NCBI GenBank assembly: GCA_038247415.1
Contig: JBBRUX010000058.1
Location: 1-20,837, forward strand
DNA: 20,837 nt
Direction: 5' to 3'
DNA from: Chitinivibrionales bacterium
GTDB taxonomy: Bacteria; Fibrobacterota; Chitinivibrionia; Chitinivibrionales; WJKA01
Below, in pieces: positions 6,322-20,387 of the stretch. The notes beneath the pieces were generated by a model. That model ran no database searches and had not been told where the DNA came from. It saw nothing but the letters and a program-made list of their open reading frames with translations. The position numbers were made by a program, and so were the translations under genes. Positions within the stretch are counted from its first letter, which is position 1. The number at the start of each line of letters is the position of its first letter.

Positions 6322-8223
6322 TTATTTAAGGCGTACAGCCTCTAGCCGCCTGTTAAGCGCTCTGCCTGTTGCAGTGCGATTATCGGCAACCGGTGTTGAG
6401 GAGCCAAACCCAACTGCACGCAAACGAGACGAATCTATACCTTTACTAATAAGATATTGCTTAACAGCCTCGGCTCGTAGTTGCGTGAGTTCGAGATTTA
6501 CAGAAGGTTTGCCAATATTATCGGAAAAGGCCCGAATTTCTATTTCAATATCAGGAAAATTGCGCATCTCACTGAGTAATGGGTCGAGTGCTTGCGACGC
6601 ATCTGAAACAAGCGTTGCGAATCCTAGCTTAAAACTGACGCCCGTTAAGGTTTGATTTTTTGGCCAGGTCGACTCTTTCTTCTTTTGTATCACCACAGGC
6701 GCAGGCGGTACTGGGAGCGGAATGGTATCGGGACACCCATCGTCATCTTTATAGGTATTAAAGTTTTCTGGGACATTAGGGCATTTGTCGCGTAGGTCTG
6801 GCAAACCGTCATGATCATTATCAGGATCGGGACACCCATTTGCATCTTCATACCCATCAAAATCTTCGGGTTCATTAGGGCATCGATCTACCGAATCGGC
6901 GAGCCCATCTTTGTCATTGTCTAAATCCGGACACCCATCATTGTCTTCAAAGCCATCAAAATCTTCGGGAGCGGTAGAACATTTATCGAGCGAATCTGGA
7001 ATTCCATCTCTATCGTTGTCGAAGTCGGGGCACCCATCCTTATCGTCAAATCCGTCAAAATCTTCGGGCAACGTCGAACACTTGTCAAGAGAGTCGGGTA
7101 TACCATCTTTATCATTGTCATAGTCGGGGCACCCATCGGAATCTTCAAAGCCATCAATATCCTCGGCTACTTTGGGGCATTTGTCAATATCATTTTTAAT
7201 GCCATCACGATCATCGTCCTGGCTTGTTAAAAAACCATTCCAACTGATATTGAATTGCACACCAAACGGAGGAACCATTCCGGTTGTATATGTTTTCTTA
7301 GAATCGGATCGATCGGTACCACTCACTCGGTAATTTACATTATCAGACAAGCCAAGATCGGCCGCAATAGACACTACAACCCCTGCAGGCGAGGTTATTT
7401 TAAGACCGGGGGTTATCCACATCATCTCTTTACGGATTTCTTGTATATCAGAAAGAACGGTCTCTCCACGAAGCTCCGAAGCCACGTCAACAAAGATCGT
7501 AACAATCTCGGATGGGCTATATTCCAGGGCAGCATTTACTAGTCCAGTAATTGCTTTCTGACTATTAGGAATTGCTGCACCTGCATTGATATCTAAAGTA
7601 AACGGGGCCTTCTTATTGAGATATCCAAAGTCAAAACTCCACAGCATGAGGCCCTTAACCACAAAACCATTGGCAGTAAAAATATCGCCGCGGGTATACG
7701 ACGCATTGCCACCATTTAATTGATAATAATAGCCGTGTCGAGGATAAATTCCTCTTCCCTGCATTCCCGACAATCCTGCCGAAACGCCAACCAAATAAGA
7801 TTGATAAAATAAACGCGGTTTATCGGGAGCTGGATACAAAATTTTAAGGGATACATCGAGGTCTCCAATACCAAAATCAGATGCCCCATATTCAGTCCCA
7901 TCCCAATAAAAAGGAAGCGCTGCAGCAAAATCAATAAACGAACCAAGACCAAGCGCCAGAAACAAGTTTGATGAGAGCATCTTGCTTGTTTCGATGGCAT
8001 CGGTAGGTTTATCGGCATTTGCAGTCCATGTCAGGAAATTTTTACTTTGCGCATAATTTACACCTGCGCCAACATTGAGCTTAGCACCCCCAAAAGTCTT
8101 GGCAGACATAGTACGAATAAGGCCAAGCTGACCATTGGAATTAATGTTTGCATAACTGCTTGCGCAAACCAGTATTGCAACAAGCCACATTCGTATACTT
8201 TGATAAAACCCTTTATGCAGCAC
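6322..8223 (-). CDS. OmpA-family outer-membrane protein (beta-barrel + TSP type-3 repeats + OmpA C-terminal domain), paralogue 2
   Basis: Signal peptide ..LVCASSYA, barrel-like N-domain, five DxDxDGxxDxxDxC units, OmpA_C motif EIRAFSDNIG..NLELTQLRAEAV..GRALNRR. GTG at 8223 lies 6 nt after AAGGAG, a better spacing than the track's TTG at 8229. Confidence 0.92.
   Translation of the reverse strand: MLHKGFYQSIRMWLVAILVCASSYANINSNGQLGLIRTMSAKTFGGAKLNVGAGVNYAQSKNFLTWTANADKPTDAIETSKMLSSNLFLALGLGSFIDFAAALPFYWDGTEYGASDFGIGDLDVSLKILYPAPDKPRLFYQSYLVGVSAGLSGMQGRGIYPRHGYYYQLNGGNASYTRGDIFTANGFVVKGLMLWSFDFGYLNKKAPFTLDINAGAAIPNSQKAITGLVNAALEYSPSEIVTIFVDVASELRGETVLSDIQEIRKEMMWITPGLKITSPAGVVVSIAADLGLSDNVNYRVSGTDRSDSKKTYTTGMVPPFGVQFNISWNGFLTSQDDDRDGIKNDIDKCPKVAEDIDGFEDSDGCPDYDNDKDGIPDSLDKCSTLPEDFDGFDDKDGCPDFDNDRDGIPDSLDKCSTAPEDFDGFEDNDGCPDLDNDKDGLADSVDRCPNEPEDFDGYEDANGCPDPDNDHDGLPDLRDKCPNVPENFNTYKDDDGCPDTIPLPVPPAPVVIQKKKESTWPKNQTLTGVSFKLGFATLVSDASQALDPLLSEMRNFPDIEIEIRAFSDNIGKPSVNLELTQLRAEAVKQYLISKGIDSSRLRAVGFGSSTPVADNRTATGRALNRRLEAVRLK
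6724..7218 (-). repeat. Five 99-bp (33-aa) thrombospondin type-3 Ca-binding repeats
   Basis: Units such as DNDKDGIPDSLDKCSTLPEDFDGFDDKDGCPDF; exact 99-bp period. Confidence 0.92.
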
Positions 8224-8308
8224 GCACAACTCCTTGGGAGGATTATTAATCAGTTACATACTCAGACGAATATATAAACTAACCCAATACACTATATATA
8301 CGCTAAAC

Positions 8309-10219
8309 TCAGTCTGTCCTATGCAATTCAACCCGCCGGTTGAGCGCTCTGCCTTCAGCAGTTTTATTATCTGCAATAGGATCGTCTTTGCCAAAACCTT
8401 TAGAGGTAAGTCGCGATCCATCGACAGCCTTATTAATAAGATATTGGCGAACCGATTCTGCGCGAGCAGCCGAGAGATCTTTATTCTTTTGAGCGCTCCC
8501 GACATTATCGGTATGCCCGCGAATCTCTATCTTTACCTCAGGCCACTCCTTGAGTGATTCAAAAACCTGATCGAGAATCGAATACGAATCGCCCGTTAAA
8601 ATAGCGCTGCCAAAGTTAAAGTTGACACCACGTAATACAACGCGTCCACGTTGGATTTCCTTAGCCTTGGGCTTAGCAGGCTCTGGCGGTACAACCTTAG
8701 CAGGTTCCGGAGGTGGCGGACAACCATTATACGCGGCTACACCTTTTTCATTAGGACACTTATCAAGAGAATCGAGAATACCGTCGGCGTCGTTATCCAG
8801 ATCGGGGCAACCATCAGCATCATCAAAGCCATCCCTATCCTCAGGAATAGATATGCATTTATCAACCGAATCTGGTACACCATCATTATCGTTGTCAAAA
8901 TCAGGGCAACCATCATTATCTACAAAACCATCAAGATCCTCTGGCTCATTGGGACATTTATCAAGCGAATCGGGAATTCCGTCTTTGTCATTATCGTAAT
9001 CGGGGCATCCATCAGCATCTTGATACCCATCCCGGTCTTCTACCTTAGTTGGACACTTATCAACCGAGTCGGCAATACCATCATTATCATTATCGAAATC
9101 GGGGCATCCATCGTCATCCTGAAAACCATCGATATCTTCGGGATCCTTAGGGCACCTGTCAACATTATCCTTAATGCCATCATGGTCGATATCCTGAGCA
9201 ATTAAAAAACCATTCCAACCAATAGATCCAGTAAGCCTCCAGCGAGGATCGATCTTGGTTGTTATAACATGGCGATCATATACGTATTTCAGATAGCTCG
9301 TGTCCGATACCAGGCTCACATCCATGCCAAGCGTTATAGAAAATCCACCCTTGGTATGAAAATTGACACCGGGAGACAATCTAAGCGGATCATCGCCAAG
9401 CTTAAACCCGTTCTTAACATTTGCGACTCGTGTTTCGCCCGAAAATTCTGTAAAAAGCACCATGAAATCCACGGGGCGATATTCGAATGCAAGATTAAGC
9501 AAAAACAAATTATCCAATTGTGCCTGTGTCACAAAATGGATACCAAAGTTTACATGTAATAAAAGGGGGCTTATATTATTAAGCTTGTTCAAATCGAGCG
9601 TCCACAGCATTTTCATATCGAGTTCGGGAGCTTTTGATGTATAAAAGCCAATAAGCGTATCTGCCAGTACCGAATCATTACTTCGATTTTTTAGGTAGTA
9701 GGTATGCTTTGGAAAGAAAGGGCCTTTCTCGGCGCCTGTTGGCAGCGTGAGTGCTCCGTACAGCGCCATTTCAAAAACCTGCTTGTGAGGATACGGGGGA
9801 TACTGAAATTTTCCACTGACCTCAATATCACCAAAGCCGCCACGCAAACCACCAAAATCCACAGATTTCAAGCTATCTGCGTGATTCTCTAAAACATGAT
9901 CCCAATACATGGGAAGCATCACGGCGAAATCGAGGAAATCGGTAAGCCCATACCCAAGACTTGGCATCGCGGTGTAGAGACTCAGATTAGGATTATAGAG
10001 CGAATCTTTATCGAAGGAAACAAGATACTTGGGATCGGCAGAAAAACTTCCACAGCCATTAACAGCGAGCTTTCCCATACCAAGCGTCTTAGCCGATTGA
10101 AGATAAAACAATCCTTCCTGCCCATTGCGATTGATGATTGACGTTTCACCAGCGATTGCTACAAAAGCCGTTGCCAGCACACATGCAGCACTAGCAACGA
10201 AACGTTTGACCGTGTTCAT
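8309..10219 (-). CDS. OmpA-family outer-membrane protein (beta-barrel + TSP type-3 repeats + OmpA C-terminal domain), paralogue 1
   Basis: ATG 10219 preceded by GAGGA; signal peptide MNTVKRFVASAACVLATAFVAIA; TSP3 repeats; canonical EIRGHTDNVG..NKDLSAARAESV..GRALNRRVE. Confidence 0.93.
   Translation of the reverse strand: MNTVKRFVASAACVLATAFVAIAGETSIINRNGQEGLFYLQSAKTLGMGKLAVNGCGSFSADPKYLVSFDKDSLYNPNLSLYTAMPSLGYGLTDFLDFAVMLPMYWDHVLENHADSLKSVDFGGLRGGFGDIEVSGKFQYPPYPHKQVFEMALYGALTLPTGAEKGPFFPKHTYYLKNRSNDSVLADTLIGFYTSKAPELDMKMLWTLDLNKLNNISPLLLHVNFGIHFVTQAQLDNLFLLNLAFEYRPVDFMVLFTEFSGETRVANVKNGFKLGDDPLRLSPGVNFHTKGGFSITLGMDVSLVSDTSYLKYVYDRHVITTKIDPRWRLTGSIGWNGFLIAQDIDHDGIKDNVDRCPKDPEDIDGFQDDDGCPDFDNDNDGIADSVDKCPTKVEDRDGYQDADGCPDYDNDKDGIPDSLDKCPNEPEDLDGFVDNDGCPDFDNDNDGVPDSVDKCISIPEDRDGFDDADGCPDLDNDADGILDSLDKCPNEKGVAAYNGCPPPPEPAKVVPPEPAKPKAKEIQRGRVVLRGVNFNFGSAILTGDSYSILDQVFESLKEWPEVKIEIRGHTDNVGSAQKNKDLSAARAESVRQYLINKAVDGSRLTSKGFGKDDPIADNKTAEGRALNRRVELHRTD
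8717..9193 (-). repeat. Four full 99-bp plus one shorter TSP type-3 repeats
   Basis: DNDxDGxxDSxDKCPxxxEDxDGxxDxDGCPD units, followed by a Pro-rich linker containing PPEPAK twice. Confidence 0.92.
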
Positions 10220-10517
10220 ACGTGTCCTCTGAAGGTGTGAATTCATGTCAAGATTTATAAAGAGACATGAATTAGCTATCATGGATATTTTTGCGAGCAA
10301 TTCAACCGATTAACCTAGAGCGCCCACAATAGGATATATTCTTTAAAGAACAAAATAATCATTGAGGGGAGTTTTGCGCAATTGCAGTTTAATCTCTTGT
10401 TCACTCCTTGCATAAAACACGCCCCAAAAGCTTGTTAGCCGATAGGCCATTTGTTAGTTTAATTAATGTAAGGTCAGTAGGTTAGACATCTTTAATTTTT
10501 TAATTGGAGGTTCTGTA

Positions 10518-13672: not shown

Positions 13673-15964
13673 TTATTGTATAGTAAAACACCCGTTCATG
13701 ATATCCTGAATACATTCCCCGCCCTTGCTTGACCAAAAAAAATCTGCAGCTTTAATCAGACACTTACTTGAATGCGTTGAAACGACTGTTGTAGCGCTCT
13801 TTAGGGTATCTGGAATAACATACGTTATCCCCGAAACCCAGTCGCTATCAACGATCGATTGATTGTAAACAAAGGAAATAGGGGTAAGAGGAAAATAATT
13901 TGACCCGCTATCCACCGACACAGAACATGCCACGGCTTGAACATCAAATGTCGCAAGAGCCTTTACTTTCCACGTAACATTGAGTGTATCACCAATTGTG
14001 TATATTTGGGCAGGACGAGGAGATACTAATGCCAAAGGCTTTAGACTATCTTGCGAGACAATAGCAAAAGGAGGTGAAATCTCGAAAATGCTTTTTTGCA
14101 CATAGTCAACTAATTTTATTTGACATTGAGAAGAAATAGTCGAATTTCCCGCAATGGTTGTGGGGATATAATAGCGATAGTTACCCCATGTTGGATACCC
14201 TCTTGAAACATTTCCAATAATATCTGAGTAGGTCTGTCCTCCATTTACAGAAATAGAAATCCCGATATTGCCTGATTCTCTTTTACCAACAAGATTGGTA
14301 TGCCATAGTATTGGGATCGACATGCCTGGTGTATAAACGGCTCCATTTAGAGGAGATTCGATCACAATCGGCTTATAGCTTGTCGTATCACACACCTGAC
14401 TATCGAGAGACCTGGGTTGCACACCAAGCGCCCAAATTGACATAACGGTCTCGAGAGTGCACAGCTTGTTCGCCTGGAGTTTAAGCATATAGAGATTGCG
14501 AAGATTCACAATTTCCGGAGGAAGTGCGGTGAGAAGGTTGGAATTAACCGAGAGGTCGATAAGCCCGGTAATTTTGCCAATTGATGCCGGCAACGAGGCT
14601 AACTTGCATCCGGTTGCGATAAGATATTTGAGTTCAGCAAGATTACCAAGAGTCGCAGGAAGCGTGATAACACTCAGATTATGCGCAATTGAAAGGTATT
14701 GGAGTTTAGTACACAACGTCAATGAGTCGGGCAGCGCCACGATGTTGTTACCATCACAAAAGAGTTTCTCTAAATTAGGGCATAACCCAAGCGACCCAGG
14801 CAATTCAAGAAGTCGATTATTATTTACACCAAGGTAGGTCAGTTTTTTGCATTTTCCCAGCGATGCGGGAATTTTAGTAAGATTATTATTAGCCAGTTCC
14901 AGTTCATTTAAATTGACAAGTTTACCAATTTCCTGAGGAAGGCTATCAAGAAAATTATTGGCGCATCGCAGGGAAACAAGCGTTGTACACTTGACTATCG
15001 AATGCGAAAGTACTGCTATTCTATTATCTGAGATATCAAGCGAAGTCAGAAGAGGCAGATCAAAAAGGGTACTAGGTAAGCTATCTATTACATTGATGCT
15101 CAAATCTAGAGACCTAATTCCTGCAAGAGAACCAATTTCCCGAGGAATAATTTTTAGATTTTTATTTGAAAGAGCCAATTCCGAAATTCTAAAATCCTCT
15201 GAGATTTTGACCAAACCCATAACTGACAAAGAAATGTGATTGGTGTCAAGGATATGTCGGACGATAAGAGAATCGGCTTGAAATTGAGACGATGCTTTGG
15301 CTTTTTCTATATCGATAAGCGAGCTGATGGTTACGGTAGTGACACTGTCGGGAAACACAGCAACATTTGAGCGGGTCAATTCTACAAACCGGCTATCTGA
15401 AGGGATCAGATCCAACTCATAGTTTCCCGAAGCAAGGTCAGTAAATAAATAAGCTCCTGTAGAATCTGCCTTAACATCAGCAAGAGGAAAACCATAAAAT
15501 CTCAGTATAATTGTCACATTCGGACTGCCCACTTCAACATATTCCAAGATCGATCCCTTGATACTTCCAGCCGGCTGTAATTTACAGGTGCCAAAATTGA
15601 TGGTGTCGTGTGGTTGATCAAAATTGGGTGTAAATACTCCAGAGAAACGGATCGTTGACAAAGAATTTGACACGATCTTAATAAGTCCGCCGGTAGTCTT
15701 AAGACTCGTATCGGTAAAAAAGTATTGACCTGAGCTATCAGTAGTATCTACAACAATCAAACTCGACGTGTCGTTTATCCCTTTTTTAATCACATATACA
15801 ATCGCACCTTGCGCCGGCTTGCCGTCTGGAAGTTTTGCCATGCCGGTGTACGATTCGGTCTCAGATCCCCCCACAAGGTTAGTGTTTGGGGGATTATTGA
15901 CACAAGACAAAATCCCTGCAATACCAACCGCACACAATACCATCCATACAGCACGTTGTTTCAT
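13673..15964 (-). CDS. Lipoprotein with carboxypeptidase-regulatory-like domains, leucine-rich repeats and two C-terminal Ig-like domains
   Basis: Real start most likely ATG 15964, 4 nt after the upstream stop (the track's 16174 start overlaps TIGR02147). Lipobox GILS-C, linker VGGSETE, G.....DGKPAQGAIV..TTDSSGQY beta-sandwich motif, LRRs, duplicated SPxxxxxYTxG..I/VxW domain. 763 aa. Confidence 0.9.
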   Translation of the reverse strand: MKQRAVWMVLCAVGIAGILSCVNNPPNTNLVGGSETESYTGMAKLPDGKPAQGAIVYVIKKGINDTSSLIVVDTTDSSGQYFFTDTSLKTTGGLIKIVSNSLSTIRFSGVFTPNFDQPHDTINFGTCKLQPAGSIKGSILEYVEVGSPNVTIILRFYGFPLADVKADSTGAYLFTDLASGNYELDLIPSDSRFVELTRSNVAVFPDSVTTVTISSLIDIEKAKASSQFQADSLIVRHILDTNHISLSVMGLVKISEDFRISELALSNKNLKIIPREIGSLAGIRSLDLSINVIDSLPSTLFDLPLLTSLDISDNRIAVLSHSIVKCTTLVSLRCANNFLDSLPQEIGKLVNLNELELANNNLTKIPASLGKCKKLTYLGVNNNRLLELPGSLGLCPNLEKLFCDGNNIVALPDSLTLCTKLQYLSIAHNLSVITLPATLGNLAELKYLIATGCKLASLPASIGKITGLIDLSVNSNLLTALPPEIVNLRNLYMLKLQANKLCTLETVMSIWALGVQPRSLDSQVCDTTSYKPIVIESPLNGAVYTPGMSIPILWHTNLVGKRESGNIGISISVNGGQTYSDIIGNVSRGYPTWGNYRYYIPTTIAGNSTISSQCQIKLVDYVQKSIFEISPPFAIVSQDSLKPLALVSPRPAQIYTIGDTLNVTWKVKALATFDVQAVACSVSVDSGSNYFPLTPISFVYNQSIVDSDWVSGITYVIPDTLKSATTVVSTHSSKCLIKAADFFWSSKGGECIQDIMNGCFTIQ
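14453..15190 (-). repeat. About 11 leucine-rich repeats of mostly 23 aa
   Basis: Consensus LxxLxLxxNxLxxLPxxIGxLxx, e.g. LNELELANNNLTKIPASLGKCKK and LIDLSVNSNLLTALPPEIVNLRN. Confidence 0.9.
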
Positions 15965-15968
15965 AGTG

Positions 15969-16796
15969 TTAGCTCTCTTGGTCGATATGTTTGGATAAAG
16001 GGAACACATGAAAATTAAATTGATACACTCGCCCACCGGCTTCATTTGATTTTGCCATTTCAAGAACTTTACGTCTAAATGCCCGCAGCTCCTCGATAAT
16101 CGTTTCGTAGTGCTTTTCTGAAACAGAGAGCGAAAGCGTCGAAAAGTTCCGTTCTGGCCGCGGCACCGCATCAAGAGCGGCTCGCGCGCGCGTCATCATT
16201 TCGGCCTGAAAACCATCAACCACTACAGCCGTTGCAGAATTCCCTGTTGTAATAAGAGCCTCGGTGGCTTTATAGGTTCCATCTTCTAATTGCGCTACAA
16301 GCCCAAGCCGTACTAAGAGCTCCACAGCATACTTTGCATCAACCACTTTTATTGGAGGTGTTAATGATCCTGCCAGTGCAGTATAATCGCCTTTGAATGT
16401 TTGCAACTGCAAAACCTCACGAATTGCCGTATAATACCATTTTGCATAGAATTCGTATTGGTCAGAAGAAACCTTGCGAATAGCCCCCGATTTATAGGTC
16501 AGCAATTTTCCATAAAAATACGTTCTCTCCTCAAGCGTTTTCGCCTGATTGTAGGTGACAAGCATCTCGAAGTACTCGGTAGCCTTTTTGGACAAGTGGC
16601 AGCATGATGCAAACTTGAGCGCTAACAGAGGAGAAATATGCCGTGTTTTATTGAGCACGCGCGTAAGCGTTGCGGGATTTACATCCAGCATGCGAGCCCA
16701 TGAACGAAGTGAGTATGTTGCATTTTTGGCCTGCCGCAGTGCAAAATCATCTGCCAAAAAATCACGGTAATCTTCGTACTCGAATATTGGTTTCAT
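15969..16796 (-). CDS. TIGR02147 family protein (N-terminal HTH + DUF4423), putative transcriptional regulator
   Basis: MKPIFEYEDYRDFL..YSLRSWARMLDVNPATLTRVLNKTRHIS (HTH), YEFYAKWYYTAIRE, RNFSTLSLSVS, VYQFNFHVFPLS; 275 aa, typical for the family. Confidence 0.93.
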   Translation of the reverse strand: MKPIFEYEDYRDFLADDFALRQAKNATYSLRSWARMLDVNPATLTRVLNKTRHISPLLALKFASCCHLSKKATEYFEMLVTYNQAKTLEERTYFYGKLLTYKSGAIRKVSSDQYEFYAKWYYTAIREVLQLQTFKGDYTALAGSLTPPIKVVDAKYAVELLVRLGLVAQLEDGTYKATEALITTGNSATAVVVDGFQAEMMTRARAALDAVPRPERNFSTLSLSVSEKHYETIIEELRAFRRKVLEMAKSNEAGGRVYQFNFHVFPLSKHIDQES

Positions 16797-16854
16797 ACAT
16801 GCTTCATTTGTTAAAGAGGATCTTATTTAAATTACTTTATTTTCTCATACATCG

Positions 16855-17022
16855 AAAACCACCCTGCAAGGAATCGACCAAATTCCTTGCCGAATGATTT
16901 TTATGAAAATCATCGACTACTCTCAAGTACCTGCCCGTCACCGGGAAGTACCTATCCATAAGGCGCAAGCTGCCTCTAGCTTAGATTCCGATTCTAATCC
17001 ACAGCATCCGCTGAGTTGCTTT
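16855..17022 (-). ncRNA. Candidate structured cis-regulatory RNA in the 5' leader of the TIGR02147 gene (family not recognised)
   Basis: Six consecutive hairpins plus a possible closing stem; the G-U pairs and a GUGA tetraloop work on the minus strand, downstream of a sigma70 promoter. Confidence 0.45.
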
Positions 17023-17075
17023 TGCTCAATGTATATCAAACTCTTTTAGGTTTTGGATATCCTACAAAAACCCTC

Positions 17076-17104
17076 ATTATAATAGAATACCCAAATCCCG
17101 GCAA
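17076..17104 (-). promoter_or_regulatory. Sigma70-type promoter for the TIGR02147-LRR operon
   Basis: Minus strand TTGCCG (17104-17099), 17-nt spacer, TATAAT (17081-17076); predicted TSS near 17069. Confidence 0.75.
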
Positions 17105-17129
17105 AAGATCAATGATTTAGGCTATTATC

Positions 17130-17148
17130 TGTTGCCAGTCTGGCAACA
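17130..17148. promoter_or_regulatory. Perfect palindrome, putative transcription-factor operator
   Basis: TGTTGCCAG-T-CTGGCAACA; half-site GGCAACACT recurs at 17240-17248. Confidence 0.65.
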
Positions 17149-17487
17149 CTATCTAGAAATATTTTTATTTTTTTGTATTATTTTTCAATAAGTTACAATT
17201 AATTTCTATATTAATTTGAGGATAAACAAGCATTTTTTAGGCAACACTTTGGATATCTAAAAAAAGCATTTGAATCTGTGTCACAAAGTTGGCTTTATGC
17301 ATAAAAATCGGATATATTATAGGAATAGCTTGTATGCAAGGGCTGTAATGATTCTTTGCCTGAGTGTATTTTATTGTCATAACGCTGAAATCGGTGCATT
17401 ATTAATAAGGATCAAGTCATTTCTTAGTTTTGCTTGTTTTGTTTCTCTATAACCGCTTAAATACCTTGCAACAGATGAGACTTACGC

Positions 17488-19320
17488 ATGGATAACACCA
17501 CTCCTGATCAAAACAATCCCGAAAAGCCAACTCCTCCACAAAGACCCTCGCGTGGAAACATGCTCCCTGAAACAAGCGTCTTTAAGGGCCGGCCGGTTCA
17601 ATCCTCCACAAACCAAAGTGGCGAAGCACCTGTAAACCCCGCTGCCAAGGTATTTCGTATTGGCGCCGGCGTGGTTAAATCGCTCATTGCACAGGGTGCT
17701 TATTCCAAGGTTTATAAAACCTGGTGCGAAAACATCGAAGAATTCCGCGTTGTAAAGATATTGCTGAATACCGATCAAGGAGATATCAAGCGACGATTTG
17801 AAGTTGAAGGAAAACTTTCGGCAAAACTGCGTCACCCCAATATCATTACCATTCATGGTCTGGGGGAATACAACAAATACCCGTACATCGAAATGGAATA
17901 CATCGATGGAGGGTCGATATCTCAAATCATTACGCATCTTGGACGCATACCGGATGATATTTGCTGTTCGGTTGGCATGGGCGTTGCGCGGGCTTTATCC
18001 TACGCACACACCCGTGAAATTTCTATGTTGGGCAATACCTATCAGGGGTTTATCCATCGCGATCTTAAGCCCGCCAACGTTATGATTAGTAAAGATGGTC
18101 ATGTTAAGCTTTTAGATTTTGGAATCGCACGGCCCGCTTCTGCCAGTTTGCACAATACGATGGCCGATGGAAATGTTATTGGGACTATGCAATACTTTTC
18201 ACCCGAACAGCTCGATGGCCTAGACCTGGATCATCGCACCGATATTTATTCGTTTGGCGCCGTCCTTTACGAAATGATGACCGGTGCAAAAACGTTTCCG
18301 CAAACCACCATGACGACGCTCGTTCGCATGAAATCGATGAATACGTTTCGATCGTTCACCGATTTCGATTTTCCTATTTCTCCTTTTTTGCAGCCTATTG
18401 TAGAAAAATGCCTCGAATTTGACCGGGACAAACGGTACTCTACGGCAGCCGATCTTCTTAAAGATTTACAAAATGCCCAACGTCAAATCAACTCAGAAGA
18501 TCCCGATCTTCTTCTCAAGCAATTCATGTCTTCTCCACGCAACTATGCAGCCAAGCGTCAAACGGTAACCATTCCAGCAATTCCTCCTCCTCCGCAAGAA
18601 ACCGTAGCACTACCTCAATCTATGCCCAATGCCGCACCGCTAGAGCCAGACGTTACACCCTCAAAAAAACAAGTACCAATTATGCTTATTGGGATTATTG
18701 CAGCTGCAGTGCTTTTAGGGGTCTTTGCAACACTGCTCTTTACAGGAGCGTTTCGACAAAAGCCTAAACTAACCGCAGCTGCTGCAGCACCCGTAATTGA
18801 CGAGTACAAGAAAACTCTCCAAGCAGCTAAAGATGCCGTTAAAGACCATTATTACACGCAAGCGATTTCAATCTTTGAAACACTGCGGGCCTCAGACCCA
18901 AGCGATACGATTGTTCGACTTCATCTTATCGATTGCTATGTGGCAACACGCCAAATCGAAAATGCTCAAGAGCTTATTGACATAGCTCCCATTAACGATG
19001 CTGTTTACTATCTGTTAAGTGGGTATCTGGCCCATAAACGGGGAGAAACATCACGCGGAATTCAACTTCTCGATTCGGCCCAATACTTGCCAAGTCTTAT
19101 TCGGCCTCAAGCAGATGTGCTGCAAGATGCAGCCTATTTTTCGGCAATGATCCTTGATTCGTCATACCGGGTTAATCCATCGCCAGAAAATTACAAACGA
19201 GATTTAACTTCTTGGGAAAATGTCAAACAGGCCTATAGTACCAAACAACATCACTCCCGTTTTGCGTATGCAGATAAACGACTTACAGAATTACTCGATG
19301 TAACACCGGCGCGTTTTTGA
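17488..19320 (+). CDS. Membrane-anchored Hanks-type Ser/Thr protein kinase with extracytoplasmic TPR-like domain
   Basis: IAQGAYSKVY, VVKIL, HPNII, HRDLKPAN, DFG, GTMQYFSPEQ, DIYSFG; Pro-rich linker; TM helix IMLIGIIAAAVLLGVFATLLF; helical TPR-like C-terminus. Confidence 0.95.
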   Translation: MDNTTPDQNNPEKPTPPQRPSRGNMLPETSVFKGRPVQSSTNQSGEAPVNPAAKVFRIGAGVVKSLIAQGAYSKVYKTWCENIEEFRVVKILLNTDQGDIKRRFEVEGKLSAKLRHPNIITIHGLGEYNKYPYIEMEYIDGGSISQIITHLGRIPDDICCSVGMGVARALSYAHTREISMLGNTYQGFIHRDLKPANVMISKDGHVKLLDFGIARPASASLHNTMADGNVIGTMQYFSPEQLDGLDLDHRTDIYSFGAVLYEMMTGAKTFPQTTMTTLVRMKSMNTFRSFTDFDFPISPFLQPIVEKCLEFDRDKRYSTAADLLKDLQNAQRQINSEDPDLLLKQFMSSPRNYAAKRQTVTIPAIPPPPQETVALPQSMPNAAPLEPDVTPSKKQVPIMLIGIIAAAVLLGVFATLLFTGAFRQKPKLTAAAAAPVIDEYKKTLQAAKDAVKDHYYTQAISIFETLRASDPSDTIVRLHLIDCYVATRQIENAQELIDIAPINDAVYYLLSGYLAHKRGETSRGIQLLDSAQYLPSLIRPQADVLQDAAYFSAMILDSSYRVNPSPENYKRDLTSWENVKQAYSTKQHHSRFAYADKRLTELLDVTPARF

Positions 19321-19350: not shown

Positions 19351-20387
19351 TCACGCTACAGCTTCTGTCAAACATTGTATTTCTTGCCATTCCGGTCTTT
19401 CCTCCTTTTCAAAAAGCTTGTTAGCTGTGCATAGGTTCTCCTGCAACCGTATTTTCCAGGCTTTTGCAAGACGTTCTTTGCGTAAAGCAAGTATTGCCTT
19501 GTCTTCGCCGCAATGCCGTTGTACAGGCGTTACATAACCGAGTCTCCCATGAAGTCGAACGTTGTTGTAAAAATTGAAATAAGCCGTGAAATAGACGAGC
19601 GCTTCAACATCATCGGTAAATGCCTCCGGATACTCCACAAAGCCCTTGGTGGTGGCGAACAATGACTCCACAAATGGATTATCATTGGGTGTACGAGGAC
19701 GGGCAAACTTCTGAGTAATTCCCCTATCTTTTACGAATCTTTTAAATGATTTTGCCTTCATCTGGGTTCCACGATCATTAAACAAAATCAACATTTTTGT
19801 TTGCTCTTCAGTTAAACCCTCATTGTCAACTCCTTCCGCAATCAGTTCTTTTCCTTCGGCATTTACAATGCCCCAACTTATCCGAAAAGCCACAACCTTC
19901 CGAGAATACTCATCCAGCACCATCGCTGAGACGGAACAGTAAGCTCCGGACGATCCGGTTTACGACTATTTCCATTGCGATGACTTCGGCCACTGCGGTC
20001 GGTGGTCAAACCTTGATCGCGCATAACCCGGTACACTGTTGAGGCGCTTACCGCAATACTACCGGCATCCACGCCCCTGGCTGTCAGAACACGATGCGAA
20101 TCATCAACATACTGCTCGTCTTTGGATAGTGTGACAATGGCCACGTGTTCCTCTGGCAGCAGTGCATGAGGGGGCATGAATCGGCCCCGACTTGGTATCC
20201 GCAAGCCCCGGCCGTGCAAACCACTCACGAACACGGCGCGGATCAATGTGCAGCAGCGCACATGTCCGATCTCGGGTAATACCGTTTTGTTTACTTTCTA
20301 CAATTGTTTCAATAATCGCAGTTTTTGTTTCCGTGGATACTCGTTCGCCTCGAATAGGGCCAATTATTCCCCATTCACTTTTTTTTT
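19351..20387 (-). pseudogene. IS3-family OrfB (DDE/rve transposase), frameshifted and internally deleted
   Basis: The -1 frame after the A9 run reads KKSEWGIIGPIRGERVSTETK..GPIHAP; frameshift in the G5 run 20170-20174; then HALLPEE..SASTVYRVMR..PELTVPSQRWCW; break near 19915; then DEYSRKVVA..NDRGTQMKA..NDNPFVESLFATTK. Confidence 0.88.
20352..20387 (-). other. Programmed -1 ribosomal frameshift signal
   Basis: CTT AAA AAA AAA GTG (A9, 20387-20379) followed by hairpin GAAUGGGG-loop-CCCUAUUC; OrfB is in the -1 frame. Confidence 0.7.

Follow-up and report, generated by a model that had tools for sequence, protein, structure and literature searches.

A possible attenuator leader upstream of one TIGR02147 gene in a Chitinivibrionales bacterium

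Introduction

The 20,837-nucleotide (nt) stretch of DNA analysed here (the window) is contig JBBRUX010000058.1 of GenBank assembly GCA_038247415.1, from an uncultured sediment bacterium of the order Chitinivibrionales. A hairpin-rich block on its minus strand (16855-17069; the element) sits in a 691-nt gap separating two divergent genes, upstream of a member of the large, uncharacterised TIGR02147/DUF4423 family. The original prediction had described this block as a novel riboswitch-like element, attenuator or small RNA (sRNA). The reading that we favour, tentatively and at rather less than even odds, is that of a 5' leader which is specific to the lineage, carries a terminator/antiterminator attenuator and serves a two-gene operon (TIGR02147 together with a leucine-rich repeat (LRR) lipoprotein gene) under a sigma-70-type promoter at 17104-17076. 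A null in which the structure is neutral is nearly as likely. Were the attenuator real, a single paralogue of the family would gain RNA-level control of its partner surface-protein gene, and this would offer a first handle on the regulation of TIGR02147 cassettes; at present there is one unconserved locus in an uncultured organism, with a predicted structure that falls within the normal range of its genome.

Predicted hairpins in the 3' half of the element

As had been proposed, the element lies between a TTGCCG-17-TATAAT site on the minus strand (17104-17076), which is the best promoter-like site of the intergenic region (10/12), and the start codon of the TIGR02147 gene (15969-16796, minus strand; 238 bits against the family model). 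The site overlaps GGTATTCTAT, which is similar to the -10 motif of this genome, G[GC]TATATTAT. The block was also correctly described as richer in GC (0.43-0.46; genome average 0.437) than the DNA on either side of it (0.18-0.34). Since the gap is bounded by two divergent genes, no neighbouring gene needs a terminator within it. The start codon of TIGR02147 is not sequestered in the predicted structure, and no Shine-Dalgarno sequence is evident on inspection.

Within this putative leader, predicted folding points to two strong hairpins. The first, which has a GNRA loop (GUGA) and was accurately drawn in the original prediction (16953-16925; -15.2 kcal/mol, z-score against shuffled sequences -4.16), has pair probabilities of 0.94-1.0, was equalled by none of 200 shuffles, and has arms that form a direct repeat, AGGUACUU. 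The second is a 45-nt hairpin at 16900-16856, again equalled by none of 200 shuffles, which is followed by UUUU and then by CGAUGUAU. Its upper stem, GCAAGGAAU(U)/(G)AUUCCUUGC (stem GCAAGGAAUU/GAUUCCUUGC), corresponds to the last stem of the earlier drawing and is retained with a pair probability of 0.99, while the ensemble extends it by a lower stem in which GGGUGGUUU (16864-16856) pairs with AAAUCAUUC (16900-16892) at a probability of 0.74. Because they use G-U pairs, both hairpins are much weaker on the plus strand than on the minus strand (-8.5 kcal/mol, with a z of -1.81, against -15.2 kcal/mol for the GUGA hairpin; -11.9 against -21.1 kcal/mol for the long hairpin). The strand preference claimed at the outset therefore holds for these two hairpins, but not for the block as originally bounded, where the minus strand has a z of -2.64 and the plus strand one of -2.80. 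A further predicted stem at 16917-16889 does form when folded alone (-9.0 kcal/mol, z -4.35), yet it competes with the long hairpin.

The 5' part of the drawing fared differently, and the caution that its first three stems could be chance proved well placed. The CAGC-GGAU-GCUG stem is marginal (-3.5 kcal/mol, 6/200 shuffles as good), the UUAGA/UCUAA and AGGC/GCCU stems are at chance level (-0.6 kcal/mol with 23/200, and -3.8 kcal/mol with 49/200), and the 5' half as a whole (17025-16956) has a z of +0.63, with 147 of the 200 shuffles folding as well. The helix thought to close a multi-way junction (17022-17013 with 16864-16855) can be drawn with nine of its ten pairs, but the ensemble pairs 16864-16856 with 16900-16892. 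It uses instead a 10-bp closing helix, UAUACAUUGA/UCGAUGUAUG (17035-17026 with 16855-16846; P 0.96; 8/10 when taken as an inverted repeat at the DNA level), which bounds a 190-nt domain of -67.1 kcal/mol, with a z of -4.74 on the minus strand (0/200 shuffles) and -3.73 on the plus strand for bounds that were chosen post hoc. The ensemble is diffuse (frequency of the minimum free energy structure 0.0004-0.002), and its centroid retains the closing helix and the two hairpins only. With 5' stems at chance and an ensemble of this kind, the multi-way-junction, riboswitch-like architecture is not upheld; the functional core, if the modelled folds are a guide, may instead be the two strand-specific hairpins of the 3' half, a proposal to which we give somewhat less than an even chance.

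These results bear directly on the idea of a metabolite-binding riboswitch, in which the 190-nt domain would be the aptamer and the 3' hairpin the expression platform. The z-score of the closed domain, its GNRA-capped helix and the terminator-like 3' hairpin would suit such an RNA, which would be new, as it belongs to no known family. Riboswitch classes, however, are normally conserved over many species, and for this one neither a survey of 296 phylum genomes nor pattern scans of genome collections turned up a relative; its putative junction is at chance level, its ensemble is diffuse, and the genes downstream encode a regulator-like protein and an LRR lipoprotein, neither of them metabolic or concerned with transport. 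We consider a riboswitch of this kind very improbable.

A predicted terminator/antiterminator switch

From the sequence features and predicted energies we infer how such a leader might work, from transcription at the promoter to termination, the switch and any signal that governs it. Transcription from 17104-17076 would yield a leader of ~273 nt (17069-16797, minus strand). The hairpin at 16917-16889 would be made first during transcription and would sequester the 5' strand of the lower terminator stem, leaving a short upper stem with the U tract 7 nt off, so that polymerase would read through. Were this early hairpin disfavoured, the full 16900-16856 terminator would form with UUUU directly after its stem, and transcription would stop ~60 nt short of the start codon. 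Candidate triggers are the speed of the polymerase and the action of a protein or small molecule; the GUGA hairpin could cause pausing, have a stabilising role or bind a protein.

Several predictions are consistent with this scheme. The upstream hairpin and the terminator are mutually exclusive, since they share 16900-16889. When successive prefixes of the RNA were folded, the 16917-16889 hairpin appeared first and the long hairpin became the minimum once GGGUGGUUU had been made; the two competing states lie ~4 kcal/mol apart (-19.8 kcal/mol for the early hairpin with the short stem, -24.1 kcal/mol for the long hairpin). The tail of the putative terminator, UUUUCGAU, is ambiguous, with 5 U in 8, and the last pairs of the stem are G-U and A-U. 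At 6295-6266 in the window, a clear terminator likewise has a poor U tail.

Promoters, palindromes and paralogues of the TIGR02147 gene

Thirteen full-length TIGR02147 paralogues, the window's gene included, are encoded in the genome to which the window belongs (3.84 Mb, 99 contigs, 43.7% GC; the window is contig C58), and each is followed by an overlapping or adjacent gene on the same strand, of 231-833 amino acids (aa). Each of these genes makes up a two-gene cassette with a variable partner, which in the window is the LRR lipoprotein-like protein. Promoters in this genome are sigma-70-like, with TTGAC ~17 nt upstream of a -10 element, [GC]TATATTAT, that occurs in 111 copies, many of them preceding genes. 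As read from the printed sequences, this -10 motif stands 4-133 nt ahead of the start in 10-11 of the 13 paralogues, and in about five of them (C7:60897, C13:35343, C19:9590, C14:56827 and C14:73320) merely 4-7 nt before the ATG, a spacing that suggests leaderless or near-leaderless mRNAs. The window's paralogue is the exception, its sole motif-like sequence, GGTATTCTATTATAAT (that of the TTGCCG-17-TATAAT promoter), lying ~280 nt upstream.

Palindromic DNA accompanies this promoter. A perfect palindrome at 17129-17147 is a candidate operator for a dimeric helix-turn-helix (HTH) protein, and the imperfect inverted repeat around the -10 hexamer (17050-17093) may be an operator that overlaps the promoter. 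Of 76 TGTTG-N7-13-CAACA sites genome-wide, the two most perfect are the palindrome at 17129-17147 and TGTTGACTGGCCAGTCAACA at C14:56755-56774, which lies 73 nt upstream of the TIGR02147 paralogue C14:56848. Both are thus found upstream of TIGR02147 paralogues, about 50-57 nt ahead of a -10-like motif, and the two are candidate paralogue-specific operators. Because of what the promoter, the palindromes and the paralogues show when compared, a start near 17069-17077 is plausible, as is a leader of ~273 nt that is peculiar to this paralogue and unusually long next to the other 12. The earlier suggestion that the TIGR02147 protein might bind the RNA found no support: the protein shows nothing recognisable beyond a weak XRE/HigA-type HTH, and since this fold binds DNA it suggests a DNA target, perhaps the palindromes.

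That symmetry also invites the view that the element works as DNA, as a set of protein-binding inverted repeats; the palindrome and the repeat at the -10 hexamer are operator-like, but the strong hairpins depend on G-U pairing, and at the DNA level these positions are mismatched. In a related proposal, the RNA would be bound by CsrA through its GGA motifs, as a leader or a sponge. CsrA is encoded in the genome, and two of the six GGA in 215 nt fall in the loops of small hairpins; yet the count is ordinary (5.3% of 3798 intergenic tiles have at least six), the hairpins that present the motifs are at chance level, and with GGA not enriched a CsrA sponge was judged improbable. Taken together, these DNA-site and CsrA readings have very little probability.

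A stand-alone, trans-acting sRNA of ~215-225 nt is a better but still unlikely candidate. It would run from the 17104-17076 promoter to an end at ~16856, with TIGR02147 transcribed from a weak proximal promoter. The promoter-like site and the terminator-like hairpin are indeed ~215 nt apart, the block between them is GC-richer than its surroundings, and a proximal site, ATGAGA-17-TAAGAT, 23 nt before the ATG, would give TIGR02147 a short leader resembling those of its paralogues. This proximal site, however, is weak (8/12; picked by eye, under the scan threshold), no conservation, second copy or target of the sRNA was identified, and the listed sequencing runs are all DNA. A little less probable again is a lineage-specific, signal-responsive RNA, whether an orphan riboswitch or a protein-controlled attenuator, whose insertion would have separated the promoter from a TIGR02147 cassette gene of a normally leaderless kind; if it were true, one of 13 paralogues and its LRR lipoprotein partner would have come under a new level of regulation in this uncultured bacterium from sediment.

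Some further features of upstream DNA were noted in passing. The motifs GATATCCAAA and AGTGTTGCC each occur in two copies on the minus strand of the intergenic region (17240-17262; 17048-17065 / 17142-17150), adjoining at about 17259-17242 and standing apart near the promoter and the palindrome; GATATCCAAAG is found too at 7620-7631 (plus strand). Upstream of the paralogue at C21:31419, the segment C21:31205-31363 (plus strand) has an RNALfold z of -6.35, stronger than that of the element; it is AU-rich and unrelated in sequence.

Searches for known families, copies and relatives

In agreement with the statement that the element matches no known riboswitch, none of the 4227 families of Rfam 15 was matched at its gathering threshold on either strand of the whole window, and the four matches returned in E-value mode for 16700-17500 were noise (scores of 13.7-17.7 bits, where the thresholds are 43-230, and E >= 5.3 throughout). 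No tRNA or tmRNA was detected, tandem repeats were absent from the element, and repeats within the window are short chance pairs only.

The element has no second copy in its own genome, where the best other match is 25 nt long (E 0.0085), and none was found in plasmid and phage collections. BLAST searches of 61 genomes (G000 and 60 relatives) and of 296 genomes of the phylum yielded no homologue, only matches of 18-54 nt across both sets; those among the 61 genomes fall outside the element, in its AT-rich flank, and five phylum matches that were inspected are unrelated sequence, mostly coding. A covariance model with 65 pairs, built from the single sequence of the 190-nt domain, retrieved, from 81 genomes of the order, itself and one hit of 13.9 bits (E 0.57). 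In exact-pattern scans neither hairpin occurred in a collection of species-representative genomes, nor the first hairpin in viral contigs. The homologues anticipated upstream of TIGR02147 genes were thus found neither among the paralogues nor in the 296 phylum genomes. A miniature inverted-repeat transposable element (MITE) or other multi-copy element, the former of which the original prediction had named as an identity that would refute it, found no support, the element being single-copy in its genome and not found in the 296 phylum genomes or in the plasmid and phage collections.

For the proteins on either side no orthologue was found. The best match of the TIGR02147 protein in the order has 43% identity, against 40% to a paralogue in its own genome; for the kinase encoded across the gap the figures are 47% and 48%; and in metagenomes of the Joint Genome Institute (JGI) two TIGR02147 loci were found, at 33% identity. 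As to coding content, frames of 43 aa and 51 aa had no homologue in a search limited to lengths of 23-90 aa, and six-frame peptides of the region matched nothing else in the genome at E < 0.28; with no homologous frame and no coding remnant, a pseudogene or small-protein gene found no support.

The putative leader weighed against a neutral spacer

Measured against dinucleotide shuffles, the element appears well folded: z is -2.64 on the minus strand at the originally proposed bounds, and -2.35 for the whole 273-nt leader. Shuffles are, however, a lenient null, and we therefore turned to native DNA as background, taking the 534 open reading frame (ORF)-free regions of at least 215 nt in the same genome, cut into 3798 tiles of 215 nt. 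Set beside shuffles the fold stands out, as the original prediction required; set beside native sequence it does not. After regression on composition the residual z at the original bounds is -0.98, which 14.5% of the 3798 tiles equal or better, and 7.0% of the tiles lie below its raw energy. In a second background, based on RNALfold z-scores, each region was left free to pick its own bounds; the best local structure of 150-200 nt at the candidate has a z of -4.48, a value reached in 83 of 1066 region-strands (7.8%), or 66 of 533 regions on either strand, and in 26 of 210 size-matched region-strands of 500-900 nt (12.4%). Among regions sorted as divergent it was reached in 16 of 158, in a rough ORF-based sorting that misplaced the candidate's own region through a spurious antisense ORF. 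The structure is real on paper and lies in the top tenth, but it is no outlier, 8-14% of the genome's own intergenic DNA scoring equally. The practical value of this comparison is one of caution: the shuffle z-score overstated the signal, and the native intergenic background corrected it.

All of these background frequencies weigh against an attenuator leader, and so do several other observations. No homologue appeared in anything searched, so there is no covariation to speak for the structure, and no orthologous locus with a syntenic upstream region was found in the order or in JGI metagenomes. No leader is shared among the 13 paralogues, the 12 others being without a comparable one. Promoter-like sites of the quality seen here are not rare, 11 of them occurring within the window's first 20 kb, and they are only 1.8-fold denser in ORF-free DNA (0.29 per kb-strand) than elsewhere (0.16); the palindromic TATAAT of this one is common to a plus-strand site at 17054-17083. 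With four residues the U tract is short, and the long hairpin was missed by a simple terminator scan; the 3' hairpin with its upstream competitor would fit an attenuator or an sRNA 3' end, as had been forecast. Near-identical DNA came from sediment metagenome runs of one study only, and all four listed runs are DNA. Contigs from these four runs hold no variant in the element (16855-17069; run X4 spans only 16609-16956), an absence which, in four runs of one study, is uninformative either way.

On such evidence, a neutral structure in a long spacer or untranslated region (UTR), possibly the decayed relic of an insertion bounded by the 17035-17026 / 16855-16846 repeat, has a probability that we put just below that of the attenuator leader. 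The fold is unexceptional beside native intergenic DNA (14.5%, 7.8%, 12.4% and 16/158 in the comparisons above), the 5' half is at chance, nothing searched shows conservation, and the paralogues manage without such a leader; an insertion would further account for a block of genome-average GC (0.43-0.46 against 0.437) between AT-rich flanks. It is less easily squared with strong hairpins that need G-U pairs found only on the strand that the promoter would transcribe. As for a relic, there is no other copy or relative of the block and no coding remnant, and neither a target-site duplication nor any other flanking direct repeat is visible at the ends of the 10-bp inverted repeat.

Comparison with known systems

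The attenuator leader finds its closest terms of comparison in Rho-independent attenuators such as amino-acid, pyr and bgl-type leaders. Like them, the element stands between a promoter-like site and a start codon, has a stem-loop that runs into a U tract ~60 nt before the start, and has, further upstream, a mutually exclusive hairpin that draws on the 5' strand of the lower terminator stem. It differs in that no leader peptide with regulatory codons, T-box, known aptamer or repeated protein-binding motif was identified in it, and in that it has a tract of four U only, a termination that is predicted, and a single locus without relatives. It would be an unconserved example of a well-known kind of leader.

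With riboswitches and other cis-regulatory families of Rfam the element has in common a long structured leader, a helix capped by a GNRA loop and what may be an expression platform, whereas it lacks a family match, conservation or covariation, and its junction is at chance. MITEs and REP-like elements resemble it in size (~190 nt), in the 10-bp imperfect inverted repeat, in being rich in hairpins and in a GC content unlike that of the flanks; unlike them, it is single-copy, with no counterpart in 296 genomes, plasmids or phages and no visible target-site duplication. Orphan intergenic sRNAs share the promoter-like site and terminator-like hairpin ~215 nt apart and the GC-richer island in AT-rich DNA, but the element has neither conservation nor a predicted target, and it stands directly upstream, on the same strand, of a gene otherwise without a good promoter.

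Neighbouring genes and other features of the window

The features of the locus are collected in Table 1.

Table 1. Features of the TIGR02147 locus and its intergenic region (window coordinates; energies and z-scores are predictions)
Feature	Position	Strand	Basis or measure
Putative untranslated 5' leader, 273 nt, of the operon of TIGR02147 and the LRR lipoprotein gene	16797-17069	-	Promoter position and start codon; -72.8 kcal/mol, z -2.35
Closed domain, 190 nt, helix UAUACAUUGA (17035-17026) / UCGAUGUAUG (16855-16846)	16846-17035	-	P 0.96
GUGA-capped hairpin, ~11-12 pairs, one bulged C	16925-16953	-	-15.2 kcal/mol, z -4.16
Alternative hairpin GUCGAUGAUUUU-CAU-AAAAAUCAUUCGGC, candidate antiterminator	16889-16917	-	Isolated fold -9.0 kcal/mol, z -4.35
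Long hairpin resembling a terminator, stems of 9 and 10 pairs about a 1x1 internal loop, loop of 5 nt	16856-16900	-	-21.1 kcal/mol, z -6.15
Sigma-70-type promoter-like site TTGCCG-17-TATAAT	17076-17104	-	10/12 matches, top of scan list
Perfect 9-1-9 palindrome TGTTGCCAG-A-CTGGCAACA	17129-17147	.	25 nt upstream of -35 hexamer
Imperfect inverted repeat TTTGGGTATTCTAT / GTAGGATATCCAAA around -10 hexamer	17050-17093	.	Local structure 17116-17034, RNALfold z -4.76
TIGR02147 / DUF4423 gene	15969-16796	-	275 aa; E 1.1e-70, 238 bits against cut-off 50
LRR lipoprotein gene	13673-15964	-	ATG 4 nt past TIGR02147 stop; N-terminus MKQRAVWMVLCAVGIAGILSC resembles lipoprotein signal
Ser/Thr kinase gene	17488-19320	+	Divergent neighbour
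Candidate promoter of kinase gene, TTGGCT-18-TATATT, then AT as in genome consensus	17289-17318	+	Promoter scan and genome consensus

Two variants were seen near the element in the metagenomic contigs. At 16794 a C>A change (plus strand), in one low-depth contig of run X4 (depth 3.5), would turn the start ATG of TIGR02147 into ATT and may be an error; at 17289 a T>A change in run X3 affects the first base of the kinase gene's candidate -35.

Just past the kinase gene, a 190-aa frame at 19351-19923 (minus strand) aligns only with the C-terminal third (237-368 of 369) of an IS3-family transposase model and is a truncated insertion sequence (IS) remnant. Further along the window, 6322-8229 and 8309-10300 (both minus strand) encode tandem paralogous OmpA-domain proteins with thrombospondin type 3 repeats, and this gene pair contains internal DNA repeats with a 99-nt period at 6682-7179 and 8756-9154.

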